The notes below the pieces were generated by a model. That model did no database searches. It worked only from the letters and a program-made list of their open reading frames with translations, and was not told the DNA's origin. A program made the position numbers and the translations under genes. Of a stretch of 64,000 nt of DNA, positions 34,046-52,948 are shown in pieces. The DNA is taken from NCBI RefSeq assembly GCF_055900595.2, contig NZ_CM148325.1; one strand, given 5' to 3'. How positions within the stretch are numbered: position 1 is the stretch's first letter; every line of letters starts with the position of its first letter.

Positions 34046-34242
34046 TGAAAGTGAGGGCACTCCAGGGGGATACCGTCGATTTACTCTGTTTCCGGCACTA
34101 CGGCACCACGCAGGGGGTGACCGCACAGGTACTTGATGCCAATCCAGGGCTCTGCCGCCAGGTAATTCTGGAAGCGGGACAGGAGGTGGAGATGCCGGAG
34201 CCGGAAAGGAAACAGCAACGCGAAAAGGTAAAGCTATGGTGA
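34045..34242 (+). CDS. X: tail protein X
   Basis: 65 aa from MKVRALQGDTVD; ATGA-type coupling to L. Confidence 0.7.
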   Translation: MKVRALQGDTVDLLCFRHYGTTQGVTAQVLDANPGLCRQVILEAGQEVEMPEPERKQQREKVKLW

Positions 34243-34526
34243 CGGGATTTTTTCAGCGCGTCAGTGACTGGATCACCTTCTGGGCGTCAGTGACGGCAAC
34301 AACCATTGGTGTTATGACCATCAGCGAAAAAATTGCGCTGGCCGGGCTGCTTCTGGGGTCACTTTCCGCCATCCATGCCTGGTGCCACCGCAGGCGTACG
34401 GAGCAGGCAATGAAGCGCCGCAATGACCTTATCGCCCGCATCCTGGCACGTTCAGAAAACCGCGAGCTTCACGACGGTGAGAGACGGGCACTGGACAGCG
34501 TGAGACAGGACGGAGAAGAGCGGTGA
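34236..34526 (+). CDS. holin (putative)
   Basis: 96 aa, hydrophobic helices followed by charged tail, directly upstream of endolysin. Confidence 0.65.
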   Translation: MVTGFFQRVSDWITFWASVTATTIGVMTISEKIALAGLLLGSLSAIHAWCHRRRTEQAMKRRNDLIARILARSENRELHDGERRALDSVRQDGEER

Positions 34527-35068
34527 AACTGCCGGTAAAACGTTATGCGGTGGCGGCCATTGTGGCGCTGGGCGTCTCCATGGCACCCGGTGAACTGAGA
34601 ACCTCACGGGAAGCACAGATAAAAATCGCCACCCGGGAAGAGTGCCGGGCGACACCGTACCGTGATATTGCAGGAGTAATGACCGTGGGATGTGGTTCAA
34701 CAGGGGGCGTGGAGAACCGGGTTTACGGAGAAAAGGAGGTGGCCCGCCGCTGGGTGAATGACCTGCGGCACGCGGAAAACTGTATCAACCAGAACTTCAG
34801 CGGTGCCGCCATGCCCCAGTCCGCCTTTGAGGCGATGACCGACGCGGCGTTCAACGTCGGCTGTACCGGCCTGATGTGGTACCGGGACAGGAGCGGCAAC
34901 CGGCAGCGCACCACCATCTGGAAGCACGCACAGGCGCACCGCTGGGTGGCGATGTGCGGGAGACTGACCGATTTTGTCAACAGTGGCGGACGCCGCTCAC
35001 AGGGGCTGGTTAACCGCCGGGAGGAGTTCAGACAGTGGTGTCTTCGCGACACGGGAGGCAGCACATGA
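34523..35068 (+). CDS. signal-anchor-release (SAR) type lysozyme endolysin (putative)
   Basis: 181 aa; N-terminal hydrophobic segment YAVAAIVALGVSMAPG followed by E-8-D-5-T catalytic pattern (EECRATPYRDIAGVMT). Confidence 0.7.
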   Translation: MKLPVKRYAVAAIVALGVSMAPGELRTSREAQIKIATREECRATPYRDIAGVMTVGCGSTGGVENRVYGEKEVARRWVNDLRHAENCINQNFSGAAMPQSAFEAMTDAAFNVGCTGLMWYRDRSGNRQRTTIWKHAQAHRWVAMCGRLTDFVNSGGRRSQGLVNRREEFRQWCLRDTGGST

Positions 35069-35472
35069 GACCGGTTTACGCCGTGATTGTTGCCCTCATG
35101 GTGACCACCCTGACGGCGGCGGCCATGTGGCAGTCATACCGGCTGGGGCGTGCCGGTGAGGCACGTGACGCCGCAGAGCAGCAGCTGGGCGAATACAGCC
35201 GGGCGCTGCGTGAGTCCTCCGCCGTTATCAGCGATGCCTCCGCCGTACTGCATGAGGTGATGACGCAGCGACAGAAAAGGGCACAGGAAGGAGAAGTCAG
35301 ACGTGAACAGCTTCGCGAAATTGCTGCGACGGATGAGTGCGCCGGCACTCTTCCTGACCACCGTTTTACTGACCGGCTGCGCGAACACACGGAACGCGCC
35401 ACTGCCCGCGCCCTCCTTCCGGTTCATTCCGGCGGGACTGACGACGGGAACACGGCCCCCGCCCTTCCCTGA
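35065..35472 (+). CDS. i-spanin (Rz/LysB-like)
   Basis: 135 aa from MRPVYAVIVALMV, N-terminal TM then charged coiled-coil domain; ATGA overlap with endolysin stop. Confidence 0.65.
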   Translation: MRPVYAVIVALMVTTLTAAAMWQSYRLGRAGEARDAAEQQLGEYSRALRESSAVISDASAVLHEVMTQRQKRAQEGEVRREQLREIAATDECAGTLPDHRFTDRLREHTERATARALLPVHSGGTDDGNTAPALP

Positions 35473-35617
35473 ACACCCCACCTGGGGAAATATCGGGATA
35501 TGGAGCGACAGCCTCCTGGATGCACTGGAAACCTGCAACGCAGACAAACGGGCCATTGAGGCGATGGAGCGCCGGAGACTCAACCGACAGAACGGAGAGG
35601 CGCATGCTGAAAAGTAA
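35333..35617 (+). CDS. o-spanin lipoprotein (Rz1/LysC-like), overlapping the i-spanin gene in another frame
   Basis: lipobox LLTGC, Pro-rich; starts inside the i-spanin gene and extends past its stop. Confidence 0.6.
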   Translation: MSAPALFLTTVLLTGCANTRNAPLPAPSFRFIPAGLTTGTRPPPFPEHPTWGNIGIWSDSLLDALETCNADKRAIEAMERRRLNRQNGEAHAEK

Positions 35618-39124: not shown

Positions 39125-41359
39125 ATGAGCACGAGAAAATTCAGAACCCTTATCACCGACATCGGGCTGGCAAAGCTGGCCGCAACAACGGCGCCTGGCG
39201 GTAGACCTGTACGCCTTACGCACATGGCTGTAGGGGACGGCAATGGAGAGCTTCGTCAGCCGCAGAAAAACCAGACATCGCTTTACAATGAGGTTTGGCG
39301 CCAGTCTGTCAACCGCGTCTTCACCGACCCGGAGAACCCGAACCGCCTCATCGCCGAACTGGTCATTCCTCCTGAAACCGGCGGATTCTGGGTGCGTGAA
39401 ATTGGTGTGTTTGATGATACAGGTACAATGATTGCAGTAGGAAATACCGCTGAAAGTTACAAGCCCACCAGAGAGGAAGGTTCAGGGCGGGCGCAGATAT
39501 TCCGTGCAGTAATCACCGTCACCTCCGACGCCGTGGTGGAACTGGTCATGGACACAACAACAATTCTGCCGACCACGGACTACATTGATGAGAAAATGGC
39601 GGAACACGCACGTTCCCGTAACCACCCTGACGCGACACTGACAGAAAAAGGATTCACCCAACTGAGCAGCGCCACAAACAGCACCTCTGAAACACTGGCC
39701 GCCACACCGAAGGCCGTCAAGGCTGCATATGACCTTGCAGCCGGTAAAGCACCCGCCAGCCACACCCACCCGTGGAATCAGATAACTGGTGTGCCATCAG
39801 CCTCGCTGACGGCAAAAGGCACCGTACAGCTGAGCAGTGCCACAAACAGTGAGTCAGAGACTGAGGCGGCCACCCCCAAAGCGGTTAAAGCCTTACACGA
39901 TATGGTGACGAGCAAGTATACAGGACAGGATGCAACCACCGGACGCAAAGGCATCGTACAGCTGAGCAGCGCCACAAACAGCAATTCCGAAACACTGGCG
40001 GCCACACCGAAGGCAGTAAGTGATGCACTGAGCATGGCGTTCGTGAAGCCAACAACATCCCTGGGGGAAACAGACCTGAACACTCTGGGGCGTAAGGAAG
40101 ACGCGGGAGATTATTACCAGCAGAGTGACTCAGGTGCGAGAACAGACAGAAACTATCCTGTAGAGAAGGCAGGAGAGTTACGCATCCGTGTTGGTGCATG
40201 GGGATTCTGCCAGCATGAATACACGAGCTGGGATCCGCCACGAAAATTTATCAGGACAGTTACCGGAAACTTTAACGGTAACGGCCCATGGTCAGAGTGG
40301 GTGGAGGTGACAAACACAGATGCAACAACTGGACGCAAAGGCATCGTACAGCTGAGCAGCGATACAAACAGCAATTCCGAAACGCTGGCGGCCACACCAA
40401 GAGCCGTCAAGGCTGCATATGACCTTGCAGCCGGTAAAGCACCCGCCAGCCACACCCACCCGTGGAATCAGATAACAGGTGTGCCATCAGCCTCGCTGAC
40501 GGCAAAAGGCACCGTACAGCTGAGCAGTGCCACAAACAGTGAGTCAGAGACTGAGGCCGCCACCCCCAAAGCGGTTAAAGCCTTACACGATATGCTGACG
40601 AGCAAGTATACAGGACAGGATGCAACCACCGGACGCAAAGGCATCGTACAGCTAAGCAGCGCCACAAACAGCAATTCCGAAACGCTGGCGGCCACACCAA
40701 AAGCTGTTAAAGCTGCGTATGACCTTGCCAACAGCAAAGCCTCGGCAGCCCACACTCATCGCTGGGCTCAGATCACAGACGCCCCTGTTTTTTCGTCTGT
40801 TGCCCGCGTCATCATGGGTAAACAAAGCATAAAAGATATTCTTGATTACTTTGGTTTAGGAGAAGGCTCGACGCTGCCAGTTGGCGTACCCGTTCCGTGG
40901 CCTTCGTCAAGACCACCTGAGGGGTGGTTACAGTGCAACGGTGCCGCATTCACGCGTACAAAATACCCAAAACTGGCGGTGGCCTACCCTGACCTCAGGC
41001 TACCAGATTTGCGCGGGGAATTTATTCGTGGATGGGATGACCTGCGAATGATTGACAGGGGACGCTTATTGTTATCCACACAGGAAGCAACATATATTTG
41101 TACCGCCATACAGGCGTACCACGGCGTAGCGGGAGGTGCAGATATTCAGGCAGGGATTTCATTTGCATCACATGATAACGACATCATAAACATAACCCCT
41201 GATCAACCCAGAACCGGTAACGGCATCCTGTACGGCACAAAACCAGTTGACAGATGGGCAATAGCCAGAGCCGGTAAGCTGGTGAGTAATGAAAAAGACA
41301 GATGGATAGCGATCAGACCGCGCAATATCGCTTTTAATTATATTGTGAGGGCAGTTTAA
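39125..41359 (+). CDS. H: tail fibre protein (P2 gpH family) with internal repeats
   Basis: 744 aa; repeated GxVQLSSATNSxSETxAATPKAVK units. Confidence 0.85.
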   Translation: MSTRKFRTLITDIGLAKLAATTAPGGRPVRLTHMAVGDGNGELRQPQKNQTSLYNEVWRQSVNRVFTDPENPNRLIAELVIPPETGGFWVREIGVFDDTGTMIAVGNTAESYKPTREEGSGRAQIFRAVITVTSDAVVELVMDTTTILPTTDYIDEKMAEHARSRNHPDATLTEKGFTQLSSATNSTSETLAATPKAVKAAYDLAAGKAPASHTHPWNQITGVPSASLTAKGTVQLSSATNSESETEAATPKAVKALHDMVTSKYTGQDATTGRKGIVQLSSATNSNSETLAATPKAVSDALSMAFVKPTTSLGETDLNTLGRKEDAGDYYQQSDSGARTDRNYPVEKAGELRIRVGAWGFCQHEYTSWDPPRKFIRTVTGNFNGNGPWSEWVEVTNTDATTGRKGIVQLSSDTNSNSETLAATPRAVKAAYDLAAGKAPASHTHPWNQITGVPSASLTAKGTVQLSSATNSESETEAATPKAVKALHDMLTSKYTGQDATTGRKGIVQLSSATNSNSETLAATPKAVKAAYDLANSKASAAHTHRWAQITDAPVFSSVARVIMGKQSIKDILDYFGLGEGSTLPVGVPVPWPSSRPPEGWLQCNGAAFTRTKYPKLAVAYPDLRLPDLRGEFIRGWDDLRMIDRGRLLLSTQEATYICTAIQAYHGVAGGADIQAGISFASHDNDIINITPDQPRTGNGILYGTKPVDRWAIARAGKLVSNEKDRWIAIRPRNIAFNYIVRAV
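39690..40010 (+). repeat. internal direct repeat copy 1 within tail fibre gene
   Basis: near-identical to 40350..40690. Confidence 0.7.
40350..40690 (+). repeat. internal direct repeat copy 2 within tail fibre gene
   Basis: near-identical to 39690..40010. Confidence 0.7.
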
Positions 41360-49672: not shown

Positions 49673-49784
49673 GAACAATAATCAGGTTGAGAGGACATCA
49701 TAAGGCAAGTAGATTAACGGCAGATACTTTCCCGCAACCACGGGCAAGTATTTAATTATCCATGATGAAATATGACCTAAATTG

Positions 49785-49817
49785 TTTTTTGCCCGCCGGA
49801 AAGCGGGCATTTTTTTA
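49785..49817 (+). terminator. terminator hairpin copy 1 (GCCCGCCGGAAAGCGGGC plus T-run)
   Basis: first of nine near-identical hairpins in 49.8-53.0 kb. Confidence 0.7.
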
Positions 49818-50030
49818 TTCTTTTGTGGTTATGGGGTCATCAGGAACCACGTGCAGATTATATTTTTGTTTTTTTGGCGTTCCTCCGGCAGCAACGAGTT
49901 CATCAATAAGACACTGACACGCCTGAACATCCCGGGCATGTCTTAGTTTCACCTTTATTGATTTAACCTTATCCTCACCGGAGGAGAAATGCAGTTCAAT
50001 CTCAATATCGTTTCTTCGGAACAATCTCAT
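49815..50030 (-). CDS. 71-aa hypothetical protein, intact copy of a repeated gene
   Basis: MRLFRRNDIEIELHFSSGEDKVKSIKVKLRHARDVQACQCLIDELVAAGGTPKKQKYNLHVVPDDPITTKE; decayed paralogues at 51101..51199 and 51784..51855. Confidence 0.55.
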   Translation of the reverse strand: MRLFRRNDIEIELHFSSGEDKVKSIKVKLRHARDVQACQCLIDELVAAGGTPKKQKYNLHVVPDDPITTKE

Positions 50031-50123
50031 ACGCCCCCTGAATATATCAGAAATACTAGTATCGAAAAATGAGAAAACAGTTAGACAGGAGAAACATATT
50101 AACACAAATCATTTATACCTATA

Positions 50124-50141
50124 GATGAAATTATAATTTCA
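50124..50141. promoter_or_regulatory. perfect 18-bp palindrome ATGAAATTATAATTTCAT with embedded TATAAT
   Basis: about 95 bp upstream of the 71-aa gene; related imperfect palindromes upstream of the decayed copies. Confidence 0.55.
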
Positions 50142-50250
50142 TTCATGAATATGATAGATAACTATATTGTGAACAAAATGAAAAATGGCTAAATTAAAAA
50201 TGGGCATGGAGGAATGCCCGGTTATCAATATAATGTGACGTAGATCATTG

Positions 50251-50281
50251 TTTTGCCCGCCGGAGAGCGGGCATTTTTTTT
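50251..50281 (+). terminator. terminator hairpin copy 2
   Basis: GCCCGCCGGAGAGCGGGC plus T7. Confidence 0.7.
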
Positions 50282-50450
50282 GCGCCTGCCATCGAGGCGC
50301 CTTCCCTGGCGCACACAAAGCAGCCCTGATTTTCCATGAAAACTTCAGGGTTGAGCTGCGGGCACAAAGTGAGTAGATTAGCTACGGGTACCTCCCCCTG
50401 ACAACAGGAAGGGTGTCCATTATCCATGATATACAAACGAAAAGTCTTGT
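50282..50450 (+). ncRNA. repeated ~170-nt structured module S1 (candidate small RNA)
   Basis: bounded by terminator hairpins; internal hairpins (GCGCC..GGCGC, CCCTGA..TCAGGG, CCTTCC..GGAAGG); four paralogous copies. Confidence 0.35.
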
Positions 50451-50481
50451 TTTTTGCCCGCCGAAGCGCGGGCATTTTTTT
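50451..50481 (+). terminator. terminator hairpin copy 3
   Basis: GCCCGCCGAAGCGCGGGC plus T-run. Confidence 0.7.
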
Positions 50482-50607
50482 ATGCATCAGACAAGATACA
50501 GCCCACCCCAACTGACACCTGAAATATTGCCGCAACAAAAAGAAACAGTTAAATTACGCGCGGGTGCCTTTCGGCTGATGGCCGGAGGGAAAACCTGAAG
50601 GCCGGAT

Positions 50608-50841
50608 GTGGAAAGGCCCCGGAAAACATTTCTGTTTAACCGAGGCCCTAACCGCATTACCTTGACAAGTGAAAGGTTAGCGCCTCTCCGGAAAAGGAGC
50701 AAGTGCTATGTCGCAAAAATCGCTTACGGCCATCACGTTCTGCGTGACGGCAATCCTCATCATCTGGATATTGCACGGTTCGCTGTGCGAAATACGGATG
50801 AGCTTCTGGGGAGCGGAGTTTGCGGCGTTCTTACAATGTAA
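50608..50841 (+). CDS. mok-like overlapping reading frame of hok locus
   Basis: 77-aa ORF starting upstream of and overlapping the hok-like frame, as in hok/mok/sok loci. Confidence 0.5.
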   Translation: MERPRKTFLFNRGPNRITLTSERLAPLRKRSKCYVAKIAYGHHVLRDGNPHHLDIARFAVRNTDELLGSGVCGVLTM

Positions 50842-50848
50842 GAAGTAA
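50708..50848 (+). CDS. hok: Hok/Gef-family type I toxin (intact)
   Basis: 46 aa MSQKSLTAITFCVTAILIIWILHGSLCEIRMSFWGAEFAAFLQCKK; single TM plus conserved SLCEIR motif; 5' GGGTGCCT (50552) complementary to 3' AGGCACCC (50906). Confidence 0.8.
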   Translation: MSQKSLTAITFCVTAILIIWILHGSLCEIRMSFWGAEFAAFLQCKK

Positions 50849-50934
50849 GGAAACCGCGACGGGGGAGCAATCCCCCGTCAATCGGTTGCCAGGGTAAGGT
50901 CGATAAGGCACCCTATCTCACAGACATGAACAAC

Positions 50935-50970
50935 AAACCCGCAGCATAAAAACTGCGGGTTTTCTTTTTG
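50935..50970 (+). terminator. rho-independent terminator of hok transcript
   Basis: AACCCGCAG-CATAAAAA-CTGCGGGTT followed by TTCTTTTT. Confidence 0.7.
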
Positions 50971-51100
50971 GTGTCCTCACCGACTTGAAACAGTGATCAG
51001 ACTATAAGACAAAGCCCGCAATGTTGCGGGCTTACTCTACCTCTCGAAAATGTGGTCACTGCGTGGACATACGCTGATACAAATCCTTTATATCAATAAA

Positions 51101-51199
51101 TTAAATCTTTGTTTTTTTCATCAACAATGATTTAACCTTATCCTCACCGGAGGAGAAATGCAGTTCAATCTCAATATCGTTTCTGTGGAACAGCCTCAT
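51101..51199 (-). pseudogene. truncated paralogue of the 71-aa gene
   Basis: MRLFHRNDIEIELHFSSGEDKVKS then divergent and stop after 32 codons; retains AGGAGG RBS. Confidence 0.55.
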
Positions 51200-51414
51200 A
51201 AGACAACCTCCTGAATTCATCAGAAACACAGTCAACTGAAAACCAGAAAGCAGACAAACAGTGGACACACATTAATACAAATCATTTATACCTATAGATG
51301 AAATTGCAGTTTCATCTATAACATGACAGGTAACAATATTGTGAAAAAACTCAAAACTCGTTAGATTAAAGACGGACAGAGCAATGCTACTTTATCAATA
51401 ACATGTAACCTGTA

Positions 51415-51445
51415 CTTCCTTATTTTGCCCGCCGAAGCACGGGCA
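51415..51445 (+). terminator. terminator hairpin copy 4
   Basis: GCCCGCCGAAGCACGGGC plus T-run. Confidence 0.7.
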
Positions 51446-51621
51446 TTTTTTTTGCGCCTGCCATCGAGGCGCCTTCCCTGGCGCACACAAAGCAGCCCTG
51501 ATTTTCCATGAAAACTTCAGGGTTGAGCCAAAAGCACAAAGACAGTAGATTAACCACGGGTGCCTTCCACCTGACAACAGGAAGGGTGTCCAGTATCAAT
51601 GACAGACAACTCACATTGCTG
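51446..51621 (+). ncRNA. structured module S2
   Basis: paralogue of S1. Confidence 0.35.
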
Positions 51622-51651
51622 TTTTGCCCGCCGGAAAGCGGGCATTTTTTT
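51622..51651 (+). terminator. terminator hairpin copy 5
   Basis: GCCCGCCGGAAAGCGGGC plus T-run. Confidence 0.7.
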
Positions 51652-51783
51652 ATTCTTTTGTGGTTATTGGGTCATCAGGAACAACATGCAGATTATGCTT
51701 TGATTTTTTTGGTGTTATTACAGCAGCAACGAGTTTATTAATAAGACACTGACATGCCTGAACATCCCTGACATATCATAATT

Positions 51784-51855
51784 TCACTTTATTTTTTTAG
51801 CTTGTCCTTTCTGGAGCAGAAATATCTCAACATCGTTTCTGTGGAACAACCTCAT
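51784..51855 (-). pseudogene. decayed paralogue of the 71-aa gene
   Basis: MRLFHRNDVEIF then frameshift; 3' region still alignable to the intact copy. Confidence 0.5.
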
Positions 51856-52071
51856 TTGCCCCTGAATGTATCATAAATATCAGCATCGGAAAACCAACAG
51901 CAATACAGAAGAAACATGTTAATGCAAATCACTTATACCTATAGATGAAATTACAGTTTTGTTCATAAATATGATAAGTAACTATATTGTGAATAAAATG
52001 AAAACTAGCTAAATTAAACGTGGGCATGGTGGAATGCCTCGTAATCAATAATACATGATCCGTACTTCCTT

Positions 52072-52102
52072 GTTTTGCCCGCCGGAAAGCGGGCATTTTT
52101 TT
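52072..52102 (+). terminator. terminator hairpin copy 6
   Basis: same hairpin. Confidence 0.7.
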
Positions 52103-52270
52103 GGCGGTTACCATCGCCTCACCTTCCTGGTTCACATGAAGCAACCCTGATTTTCCATGAAAACTTCAGGGTTGAGACAAAAGCACAAAGACAGTAGATT
52201 AACCACGGGTACCTTCCACCTGACAACAGGAAGGCTGTCCAGTATCAATGACAGACAACTCACATTGCTG
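52103..52270 (+). ncRNA. structured module S3
   Basis: paralogue of S1/S2. Confidence 0.35.
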
Positions 52271-52299
52271 TTTTGCCCGCCGGAAAGCGGGCTTTTTTT
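52271..52299 (+). terminator. terminator hairpin copy 7
   Basis: same hairpin, T-run after GGGC. Confidence 0.7.
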
Positions 52300-52471
52300 G
52301 GCAGTTATCATAGCCGCACCTTCCTGGCACATATGAAGCAACCCTGATTTTCCATGAAAACTTCAGGGTTGAGACAAAAGCACAAAAACAGTAGATTAAC
52401 CACGGGTGCCTGCCACCTGACAACAGGAAGGGGTGTCCATTATCCATGATATACAAACGAAAAGTCTTGTC
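52300..52471 (+). ncRNA. structured module S4
   Basis: paralogue, 3' end like S1. Confidence 0.35.
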
Positions 52472-52501
52472 TTTTGCCCGCCAAAGCGCGGGCATTTTTT
52501 T
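52472..52501 (+). terminator. terminator hairpin copy 8
   Basis: GCCCGCCAAAGCGCGGGC plus T-run. Confidence 0.7.
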
Positions 52502-52712
52502 ATGCATCAGACAAGATACAGCCCACCCCAACTAACACCTGAAATATTGCCGCAACAAAAAGAAACGGGTGCCTTTCGGCTGATGGCCGGAGGGAAAACC
52601 TGAAGACCGGATGTGGAAAGGCCCCGGAAAACATCTGTGTTTAACCGAGGCCTGACCCTTCCTACCGTGACAAGTGGAAGGTTAGCGCCTCTTTGTAAAA
52701 GGAGCAAGCGCT

Positions 52713-52853
52713 ATACCGCAAAAAACGATTATTGTTGGCATTTTATGCCTGACAATAACCCTGGTCATCTGGATGGTCCACGATTCGTTATGTGAATTCA
52801 GCTTTGATATCTGAGGAGCGCGTTTTGCGGCGTTCTTGCAGTGTAAACCGTAA
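52713..52853 (+). pseudogene. hok-like toxin pseudogene (second copy)
   Basis: paralogous to 50708..50848 but start codon is ATA and an in-frame TGA replaces the Trp codon; mok-like frame 52613..52795 retained. Confidence 0.7.
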
Positions 52854-52948
52854 GAAACCGCAGCGGGGGAGAAATTCCCCGCTATCCGGTTGTTGGGGTG
52901 GGCCGATATGGCGCCCTTTCCCTGTAGAGACAAAACAAAAAACCAGAT

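Follow-up and report, generated by a model that had tools for sequence, protein, structure and literature searches.

A predicted SAR endolysin and an overlapped spanin pair in the lysis cassette of a P2-like Escherichia coli prophage

Introduction

In SAR systems, the endolysin is exported through Sec without the holin, and its timed release normally comes after holin-driven depolarisation of the membrane. The best structural reference for the enzyme described here is Lyz of phage P1, which has been solved in an active (PDB 1XJT) and an inactive (1XJU) form. R21 of phage 21 (3HDE/3HDF) and RrrD of DLP12 (4ZPU) combine an E-8-D-5-T triad with a SAR segment that contains no Cys; the SAR domain of R21 is Gly-rich and longer than the segment studied here. 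A further class, that of Lyz103 from ERA103, reportedly has Cys residues flanking the catalytic Glu (C-E-x-C) in addition to a Cys in the SAR segment. The catalytic motif is defined as Glu-X8-Asp/Cys-X5-Thr (PMC3556154, PMC8228626).

The prototype of the overlapped spanin is the LysB/LysC pair of phage P2, in which the o-spanin gene begins within the i-spanin gene, shifted to the +1 frame, and runs on past the i-spanin stop. Overlapped genes are the commonest spanin architecture and account for 228 of 528 systems (PMC6139136).

We analyzed one locus of this kind in a 64,000-nt stretch of DNA (the window; contig NZ_CM148325.1 of RefSeq assembly GCF_055900595.2). It is a real yet ordinary case of these well-described types. 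In our judgment it is probably the late-gene lysis cassette of a P2-like prophage, with a SAR lysozyme and overlapped spanins that would act in the order set out below.

Results and Discussion

The cassette and its host element

A preliminary description of the window had assigned an endolysin and a spanin pair to positions 34523–35617, and these coordinates and the ORFs within them agree with the sequence. The features discussed below are as follows.

34523–35617, together with 34236–34526, plus strand: lysis cassette, the second interval being the holin-like gene; coupled or overlapping reading frames
34236–34526, plus strand: holin-like gene, 96 aa (PHROG 1350 "holin", E 7e-23)
34523–35068, plus strand: endolysin of 181 aa with a GH24/T4-lysozyme fold, homologue of P1 Lyz (PF00959, PHROG 7, PDB 1xjt)
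34544–34591, plus strand: putative SAR segment, residues Y8–G23 (YAVAAIVALGVSMAPG), from sequence and conservation
34637–34693, plus strand: catalytic region, with E39 (34637–34639), C41, D48, T54 (34682–34684) and C57 (34691–34693)
35065–35472, plus strand: i-spanin, 135 aa (PHROG 214 Rz-like spanin, E 1.3e-25)
35303–35617, plus strand: predicted o-spanin lipoprotein precursor, 104 aa (PF23793; PHROG 3001 and 456)

Annotation and profile searches place the cassette in a P2-type virion module, flanked by gpX and gpR. The host element is apparently a complete P2-like (Peduoviridae) prophage of E. coli, inserted in the chromosome between dmsA and serS and carrying a P2-type gene set that runs from integrase to ogr. 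As with LysB/LysC in the late operon of P2, the spanin genes lie just before gpR; unlike P2, the cassette has no lysA-like gene between endolysin and spanins. We found the cassette in 28 of 5426 complete E. coli genomes, and several RefSeq E. coli chromosomes carry it at 100% identity. A megablast of the cassette against the phage collection gave no matches, and its relatives were reached by protein-level searches.

The lysozyme

The lysozyme ORF runs from a GTG start at 34523 to a TGA stop at 35066–35068, with GGAG at 34512–34515, 7 nt before the start. Its first codon overlaps the stop of the holin-like gene in the sequence GTGA, through which the two genes are predicted to be translationally coupled. 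The product belongs to Pfam family PF00959 (Phage_lysozyme; 77.6 bits against a cut-off of 22.3, E 1.4e-21) and matches the PHROG 7 endolysins (E 9e-48). All NCBIfam matches for the lysozyme and the i-spanin were sub-threshold.

The closest solved relative is P1 Lyz (PDB 1xjt; HMMER, E 6.9e-36; 42% identity), and the sequence alignment extends into the SAR region. The two proteins share an architecture of charged N-terminus, weakly hydrophobic segment and GH24 domain, and they have in common the catalytic Glu and Thr, the Cys at the second position past that Glu (C41; C44 in P1) and four more Cys residues (C87, C114, C145 and C173). An AlphaFold (AF2) model of the lysozyme has a pLDDT of 86. 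It superposes closely on full-length, active Lyz (1xjt; TM 0.87/0.89, rmsd 2.2 Å over 178 columns) and poorly on inactive Lyz (1xju; TM 0.57), and its structural matches comprise the P1 Lyz, R21, P22 and T4 lysozymes. The model may simply echo a memorized P1 Lyz fold.

An E-8-D-5-T catalytic pattern had been noted in the preliminary description, and it is present as E39, D48 and T54. In an alignment of 29 homologues, E39, C41 and T54 are invariant. Residue 38, beside the catalytic Glu, is Arg in the E. coli allele and Trp, Tyr or Phe in aligned close relatives; the equivalent residue of P1 Lyz is Ala. Judging from this position, lowered activity of the Arg38 allele is possible.

The N-terminal segment

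The protein begins MKLPVKR-YAVAAIVALGVSMAPG-E. Three positively charged residues (K2, K6 and R7) are followed, directly before the catalytic part, by 16 uncharged residues, 8 of which are Ala, Gly or Ser. This is what the earlier claim of a signal-anchor-like segment had anticipated, and the segment and the SAR region of P1 Lyz are homologous. By the standards of the family the segment is short and weak. Its best 19-mer has a crude Hessa insertion energy of +7.3 kcal/mol, a position-independent approximation like all such values given here, which ranks it 104th of 120 family members, at the weak end. This ranking uses retrieved sequences alone and is therefore safer than a comparison with P1 Lyz (about +0.5 kcal/mol) and R21 (about +0.8 kcal/mol), for which we used what we take to be the first 13 residues of Lyz and the N-terminus of R21.

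On the combined evidence of sequence and predicted fold, the lysozyme is most likely a SAR endolysin held by an uncleaved, weak anchor. The main alternative is an ordinary Sec signal peptide removed by signal peptidase I, which would yield a soluble periplasmic lysozyme whose activity is restrained otherwise than by SAR tethering. Lys44 of the Oenococcus phage fOg44 is an example of a secreted, soluble endolysin with a cleaved signal peptide. The N-terminus has the textbook n/h/c layout for this, consisting of MKLPVKR, an h-region of 11–14 residues and the small residues G17, S19 and A21. The uncharged run of only 16 residues and its unfavorable insertion energy point in the same direction, and to judge by its sequence the segment could pass for a signal-peptide h-region as readily as for a TMD. 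There is also a precedent in T4 RI, which was long labeled SAR and has been reclassified as a cleaved signal peptide (PMC8385771).

Four observations argue against cleavage. The first concerns the candidate sites themselves: the best −3/−1 site, S19-M-A21, is the sole AXA-like one and immediately precedes P22, which is invariant among homologues. A Pro at +1 blocks cleavage by LepB. The other possible sites, A15-L-G17/V and G17-V-S19/M, have −1 residues that are poorly conserved in homologues, several of which have Thr. Second, the segment does not evolve like a disposable leader. Mean pairwise identity within the query's class is 0.78 for residues 8–23 and 0.71 for the catalytic part (residues 61–176), and omega is 0.07–0.15 for codons 7–23 against 0.12–0.15 for the catalytic part (pS 0.54–0.75), so that purifying selection acts on the segment no less strongly than on the catalytic domain. 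Third, AF2 packs a helix of residues 10–20 onto the enzyme body with high confidence (pLDDT of about 93), as in active full-length P1 Lyz. Fourth, close relatives (as much as 71.5% identical) carry every Cys of the P1-type set, one of which lies in this segment and is required for P1-type activation by those up to about 70% identical. Such a Cys is useful only if the segment is kept, and it therefore counts toward non-cleavage. We regard a cleaved signal peptide as unlikely, if still a serious alternative. For the SAR endolysin that we favor, we infer that the segment stays uncleaved and is released on depolarisation.

The preliminary description had gone further and proposed holin-independent membrane release. 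This holds for export, which does not depend on the holin in SAR systems, but it is imprecise for release, which when timed usually follows depolarisation by a holin; here a holin-like gene adjoins the lysozyme gene upstream.

A different N-terminus is implied by RefSeq, where PGAP annotates WP_202116435.1 in E. coli chromosomes from the ATG at 34580 (M20), and ATG is a commoner start codon than GTG. If this model were right, the protein would be a 163-aa soluble cytoplasmic endolysin needing a large-hole holin, and the upstream hydrophobic codons would be untranslated. We consider this very improbable. No Shine-Dalgarno sequence precedes 34580, whereas GGAG stands 7 nt before GTG 34523, and the GTGA overlap is typical of coupled phage genes. 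The position of M20 is mostly Leu or Ile in homologues, and codons 7–23 are under strong purifying selection at high synonymous divergence. The 181-aa protein is also called elsewhere, for example in a cluster of 139 member sequences (P0001), and the endolysin of Enterobacter phage phiT5282H is annotated from the equivalent upstream start. That the locus is a decaying prophage remnant with a non-functional lysozyme allele or spanins is scarcely credible, for although prophage genes often decay and the W38R change is specific to the E. coli allele, all four frames (holin-like, lysozyme, i-spanin and o-spanin) are intact with good ribosome-binding sites, the P2-type gene set is complete, the lysozyme allele is 99–100% conserved over many unrelated E. 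coli isolates, and P1 Lyz itself has Ala at the equivalent position.

The cysteine set of the lysozyme

The regulatory subclass of P1 Lyz is marked by a Cys in the SAR segment and a second Cys at the position of the catalytic Asp, and relatives up to 71.5% identical to the query have both. The query itself has neither. There is no Cys in residues 1–40, Tyr8 stands where close relatives have Cys, and Asp48 replaces the catalytic, regulated Cys51 of P1. The query further differs from P1 Lyz in an extra Cys57, at the position of P1 Ile60, and in a shorter, weaker hydrophobic segment. With the P1 regulatory cysteines missing, P1-type thiol–disulfide isomerisation cannot control this lysozyme.

With the R21 and Lyz103 classes defined partly from secondary sources, the lysozyme shows the sequence feature of the R21 subclass (E-8-D-5-T and no SAR-segment Cys) and lacks that of Lyz103, since it reads R38-E39-E40-C41 and its SAR segment contains no Cys. 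C-E-x-C does occur in two family members (P0099 and P0110). The triad shared with R21 and RrrD, in combination with the Cys-free segment, leads us to expect control by topology and by the SAR segment folding back onto the enzyme after its release. The resemblance goes no further. Similarity to R21 is weak (E 1.2e-4), R21 and RrrD are both distant from the query (E of about 1e-4, TM 0.63–0.65), and R21-type members in our family census lack a Cys after the catalytic Glu, whereas the query keeps C41 and adds C57.

Positions 8, 48 and 57 covary perfectly in the 29 close homologues: 11 have Y/D/C and 18 have C/C/[ILM]. Among family members with a SAR-like N-terminus, C41 and D48, our census counted 13 with an N-terminal Cys, 19 plus the query with C57, and none with neither. 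The C57 state recurs in P0074 and P0088, which form a second, distant clade with a P1-type nearest relative; this suggests that the state arose at least twice independently. By its sequence, the lysozyme is thus assigned to a sub-lineage in which the SAR Cys has become Tyr8, the catalytic Cys has become Asp48 and Cys57 has been gained. We tentatively suggest that it constitutes a new regulatory sub-lineage among SAR endolysins of the P1 Lyz type, one in which the thiol-isomerisation switch would have been dismantled and rewired; the partnerless Cys41 and the new Cys57 may form a fixed intradomain disulfide by the catalytic Glu, replacing the bond from the SAR segment to C44 in active P1 Lyz. 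The putative C41–C57 disulfide is drawn from the covariation; reasoning from the strand registry of T4 lysozyme gave no clear answer and was set aside. We found no description of the sub-lineage in the literature that we searched, which did not cover Kuty et al. 2010.

The evolutionary interest of this is modest. Endolysins as much as 71.5% identical to one another swap Cys-controlled (P1-type) and Cys-independent forms through three coordinated substitutions, which makes the group a natural experiment in how a self-exporting lysozyme gains or loses its covalent safety catch.

The spanin pair

The i-spanin gene starts at ATG 35065, which overlaps the lysozyme stop in the sequence ATGA and is preceded by GGGAGG at 35053–35058. 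An alternative start at GTG 35035 was dropped on the position of the Shine-Dalgarno sequence. The predicted product has a single N-terminal TMD (approximately residues 4–22, with an insertion energy of about −0.05 kcal/mol) followed by a helical domain in the periplasm, in which Cys92 is conserved, as expected of an i-spanin. It is no equivalog of P2 LysB: TIGR03495 (LysB, NCBIfam) scored 17.8 bits against a cut-off of 92.75, and the broader PHROG 214 was matched instead.

The o-spanin gene had been described as starting within the i-spanin gene in another frame, and this proved correct. It lies in the +1 frame, overlaps the i-spanin gene by 170 nt and continues for 145 nt past the i-spanin stop, ending at 35617. 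We place its start at GTG 35303, with AGGAAGGAG upstream at 35285–35293. ATG 35333 was dropped in favor of this codon on account of the Shine-Dalgarno position and the conservation of the GTG in P88. The lipobox, L-T-G-C, is encoded at 35369–35380 in the context MNSFAKLLRRMSAPALFLTTVLL-TGC26-A27; the lipobox Cys is present and the +2 residue is Ala rather than Asp, from which lipidation is predicted. The mature protein would have a Pro-rich N-terminal part and a conserved Cys in the motif ETCNAD.

This out-of-frame ORF did not arise by chance. It matches Pfam PF23793 (LysC; 49.3 bits against a cut-off of 27, E 4.6e-13) and the PHROG Rz-like spanins (E 1.7e-19), the annotated o-spanins of Mu and SfII are among its relatives by tblastn, and P88, phiT5282H, L005 and L007, two of these being metagenomic/genomic relatives, carry the overlapped pair as well, lipobox included. 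The two genes are firmly predicted to encode an overlapped two-component spanin made up of a TMD i-spanin and a lipobox o-spanin. With P2 LysB/LysC they share the internal +1-frame start, the extension past the i-spanin stop and the LysC Pfam match. Their nearest relatives are those of Xuanwuvirus P88 (i-spanin 45% and o-spanin 67% identical), where the o-spanin ORF is unannotated but agrees in its GTG start and in the residues around the lipobox (LLTGC). DNA identity to P88 is 48% in the part that encodes only the i-spanin, 69% in the overlap, which aligns without gaps, and 77% in the part that encodes only the o-spanin.

A proposed order of events

The following sequence of events is, in our view, the best account of these data. 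The holin-like protein and the lysozyme would be made from their coupled genes, and the N-terminal segment of the lysozyme would most likely engage Sec, after which its uncleaved, weak signal anchor (SAR domain) would hold the enzyme at the inner membrane, on the periplasmic side. Collapse of the membrane potential by the holin, or slow spontaneous exit, would let the segment leave the bilayer and fold onto the catalytic domain. Given an anchor without Cys and an Asp in place of the P1 catalytic Cys, control should be exerted by topology and refolding, as in R21 of phage 21, and not by disulfide isomerisation. The active muramidase, with E39, D48 and T54, would then degrade the murein. In the last step, the outer membrane would be disrupted by the two spanins, which would jointly span the periplasm: the i-spanin from the inner membrane, as a type II protein, and the o-spanin from the outer membrane, as a lipoprotein translated from the overlapping +1 frame. 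Of this order, the gene structure, homology, conservation and predicted fold come from our analyses; export, non-cleavage, release, lipidation and timing we infer from them.

Annotation of the cassette

Both signals on which this order depends are missing from the RefSeq models. The lysozyme model loses its membrane anchor by starting at M20, and the LysC model loses its lipobox by starting at an ATT codon downstream of it. As a result of these truncations, both proteins would escape searches by function for SAR endolysins and spanins. The locus is a clean instance of a known problem, in which automated pipelines trim away precisely those N-terminal signals by which lysis proteins are defined. 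As antibacterial enzymes, SAR lysozymes have applied interest too.

The holin-like gene

The gene directly upstream of the lysozyme gene matched the Pfam HP1-family holins at 19.8 bits, below the cut-off of 28.8, and an NCBIfam search yielded no usable family for its product or for the o-spanin. Reading the topology by eye from the sequence, we predict two weakly hydrophobic TMDs (W12–I29 and I33–W49), the second of which contains G37xxxG41xxxA45, and a long, highly charged C-terminal tail. The two weak TMDs and the GxxxGxxxA motif are the features that might hint at a pinholin, an identity that we do not claim for this protein. A possible dual-start motif (ATG GTG) was dismissed since there is no charged residue between the two codons.

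The holin-like gene co-occurs with the endolysin in phiT5282H (a Novemvirus) and in P2-like prophages of Klebsiella (for example ST16-OXA48phi5.4 and KP12), in all of which the genes likewise run holin, endolysin, overlapped spanins, gpR. Identity to the query is 52% for their holins and 66–69% for their endolysins. The phiT5282H endolysin differs in keeping the P1-type Cys set (C8, C48 and I57), and the spanins of that phage are only distantly related to those described here, with an o-spanin that is 39% identical.

Organization of the lysis cassette

The preliminary description of 34523–35617 was accurate in its coordinates and gene content: three plus-strand genes lie there, with a fourth directly upstream.

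34236–34526, plus strand: holin-like gene, 96 aa; upstream of the three, adjoins the endolysin gene
34523–35068, plus strand: lysozyme (endolysin) gene, 181 aa; GTG start with GGAG 7 nt 5' of it
35065–35472, plus strand: i-spanin gene, 135 aa; ATG start, GGGAGG at 35053–35058
35303–35617, plus strand: o-spanin gene, 104 aa; GTG start, AGGAAGGAG at 35285–35293; +1 frame relative to the i-spanin gene
35604 (start): gpR, tail-completion gene, overlapped by the 3' end of the o-spanin gene

The end of the holin-like gene and the lysozyme start share a GTGA overlap, and the lysozyme stop and the i-spanin ATG share an ATGA overlap. All parts of the finding belong to known kinds. The cassette combines a GH24 endolysin of the P1 Lyz family, probably of the signal-anchor-release (SAR) type, with overlapped spanins in a P2-type setting, a combination already described in Klebsiella phage KP12 (PMC9902359).

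Two transmembrane domains (TMDs) of marginal hydrophobicity, the first rich in Thr, Ser and Ala and the second carrying GxxxGxxxA, precede a 47-residue charged tail in the holin-like protein, an arrangement that recalls class II holins or pinholins. From Pfam, the sole support for the holin assignment was a sub-threshold match to the HP1 holin family.

The endolysin and its N-terminal segment

The endolysin matched Pfam Phage_lysozyme (E 1.4e-21) and PHROG 7. Its catalytic pattern, numbered from GTG 34523, is E39-X8-D48-X5-T54, with E39 and T54 invariant among 29 homologues; Glu-X8-Asp/Cys-X5-Thr is the triad of the T4/GH24 family (PMC3556154, PMC8228626). By far the closest solved relative is the P1 SAR endolysin Lyz (E 6.9e-36), and two other SAR endolysins, R21 and DLP12 RrrD, come next (~1e-4). 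The AlphaFold model (pLDDT 86, pTM 0.84) resembled full-length active Lyz (1xjt; TM 0.87/0.89, rmsd 2.2 Å, 178 columns), whereas the TM score against inactive Lyz (1xju) was only 0.57.

Residue 38 (34634–34636), the N-terminal neighbor of the catalytic Glu, is encoded as Arg (CGG) by the E. coli allele and the cluster 99% identical to it, but is Trp, Tyr or Phe in the close relatives aligned and Ala in P1 Lyz. The single-base change from TGG to CGG may be neutral or activity-modifying.

RefSeq PGAP models of the same cassette (loci L001 and L003) start the lysozyme at ATG 34580, which is M20, giving a 163-aa product that has lost the hydrophobic N-terminus. We rejected this start. It has no Shine-Dalgarno sequence, whereas 34523 has a well-placed one, and most homologues carry Leu or Ile at the position of M20. 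Within the endolysin's own class, mean pairwise identity is higher for residues 8–23 (0.78) than for the catalytic domain (0.71), and omega for codons 7–23 (0.07–0.15 at pS 0.54–0.75) is the same as for the catalytic part (0.12–0.15). On this evidence we judge that the N-terminal segment is translated and that its sequence is under constraint.

The N-terminus carries K2, K6 and R7 and then YAVAAIVALGVSMAPG, half of it Ala, Gly or Ser. The preliminary description had called the protein a SAR-type endolysin and suggested holin-independent membrane release. Its interpretation is supported, with two corrections. The signal-anchor-like segment does precede the E-8-D-5-T pattern, and SAR behavior is probable; export, tethering and depolarization-triggered release are what we infer. 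In SAR systems the holin-independent part is export, not when release happens, and a holin-like gene sits upstream here.

A signal peptide that is cleaved is a serious rival, if an unlikely one, because the segment is short, with an uncharged run of only 16 residues, and weakly hydrophobic (best 19-mer, crude Hessa sum, +7.3 kcal/mol, rank 104 among 120 members of the family); the precedent of T4 RI calls for caution (PMC8385771). Cleavage fits poorly with the model, in which helix 10–20 (pLDDT ~93) lies packed against the body of the enzyme, as it does in active P1 Lyz. Relatives with as much as 71.5% identity have a Cys within the segment together with the remainder of the P1 regulatory cysteine set, and that Cys is useful only if the segment is retained. 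The sole AXA-like site, S19-M-A21, precedes the invariant Pro22, and Pro at +1 blocks signal peptidase I; at the remaining candidate sites, the −1 residue is poorly conserved.

Cysteine classes and mode of control

If the segment is a retained SAR anchor, the cysteines bear on its control. The 29 homologous sequences form two classes in which positions 8, 48 and 57 covary perfectly: a P1-type class (n = 18) with an anchor cysteine (Cys8), Cys48 where the other class has its catalytic Asp, and Ile, Leu or Met57, and a second class (n = 11, including the window's endolysin) with Tyr8, Asp48 and Cys57. Cys41 (P1 C44) is invariant across both. With Tyr8 and Asp48, the endolysin lacks the defining features of the P1 disulfide-isomerization subclass. 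The Lyz103 caging subclass is marked by a C-E-x-C motif and a SAR Cys, and the endolysin has neither. Since both subclasses fail, control should, by exclusion, be as in R21, through topology and refolding; R21, however, is only distant in sequence, and R21-type members lack the C41 that the endolysin keeps.

A profile search of 1.84 billion representatives yielded 179 more sequences of the family for a census, the endolysin itself not counted. Of those in which a SAR-like N-terminus was combined with C41, 77 were P1-type, 13 had D48 with an N-terminal Cys, and 19 (plus the endolysin) had D48 and C57 but no N-terminal Cys; none in the 179-sequence census had D48 with neither. The simplest hypothesis is that C41 changed its disulfide partner, from the SAR Cys to C57. 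Two library proteins, P0074 and P0088 (~37% identical to the endolysin), belong to a distant SAR-like clade with C41, D48 and C57 and no N-terminal Cys. The nearest neighbor of this clade is a P1-type enzyme, and the pair suggests that the same rewiring recurred independently. This cysteine-switch sub-lineage is the sole feature here that might merit more work.

The spanin pair

Near its N-terminus the i-spanin carries a genuine TMD (approximately residues 4–22, insertion energy ~0), and the protein matched PHROG 214 'Rz-like spanin' (1.3e-25); its score against NCBIfam LysB was far under the cut-off. The o-spanin matched Pfam LysC (49.3 bits, threshold 27). Its n-region is charged and is followed by a hydrophobic core; the lipobox, L-T-G-C26, has Ala in the +2 position, and the N-terminal part of the mature protein is rich in Pro. 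Annotated o-spanins of Mu and SfII are among its relatives.

As first described, the o-spanin gene begins inside the i-spanin gene in another frame and ends past its stop: it runs from GTG 35303 in the +1 frame to 35617, overlapping by 170 nt and reaching 145 nt beyond. Overlapped architecture is the commonest among two-component spanins (228 of 528 systems), with P2 LysB/LysC, also +1, as prototype (PMC6139136). Phage P88 (Xuanwuvirus) has the same overlapped pair, its o-spanin unannotated, with the same GTG start and lipobox context (LLTGC). DNA identity to P88 is 48% where the i-spanin alone is encoded, 69% and gap-free across the overlap, and 77% where the o-spanin alone is encoded, a pattern as expected for doubly coding DNA. 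The Enterobacter phage phiT5282H and two other relatives share the layout, with lipoboxes.

PGAP starts lysC at an ATT codon, 35426, giving a 63-aa product with neither signal sequence nor lipobox Cys; that o-spanins are left unannotated or given the wrong start has been documented as a problem (PMC6139136). Some genomes carry no lysC annotation and name the holin and i-spanin 'hypothetical protein'.

Prophage setting

The cassette has P2-type neighbors, with the small terminase, gpL and gpX upstream and gpR, gpS, gpV and gpW downstream; unlike P2, it contains no lysA-like gene. The window matches an E. coli prophage lying between dmsA and serS, from integrase through ogr. Of 5426 complete E. 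coli genomes, 28 carry the cassette, and several RefSeq chromosomes have it at 100% identity; a DNA-level search of phage records returned no close phage.

Judged by protein identity, the cassette is mosaic. The holin (52%) and lysozyme (66–69%) resemble those of phiT5282H (Novemvirus) and Klebsiella P2-like prophages, whereas the spanins resemble those of P88 (i-spanin 45%, o-spanin 67%), whose own endolysin is an unrelated M15 peptidase and which has a different holin beside its spanins.

Past ogr towards serS, 49780–52920 holds several degenerate direct repeats (~110–230 nt, 66–98% identical) spaced ~0.2–2 kb apart; a Hok/Gef family gene is annotated for this region in the matching E. coli genome. 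In the prophage tail-fiber gene region, at 39660–40780, internal repeats of ~350 nt that are ~95% identical showed up only as secondary BLAST matches between the window and L003.
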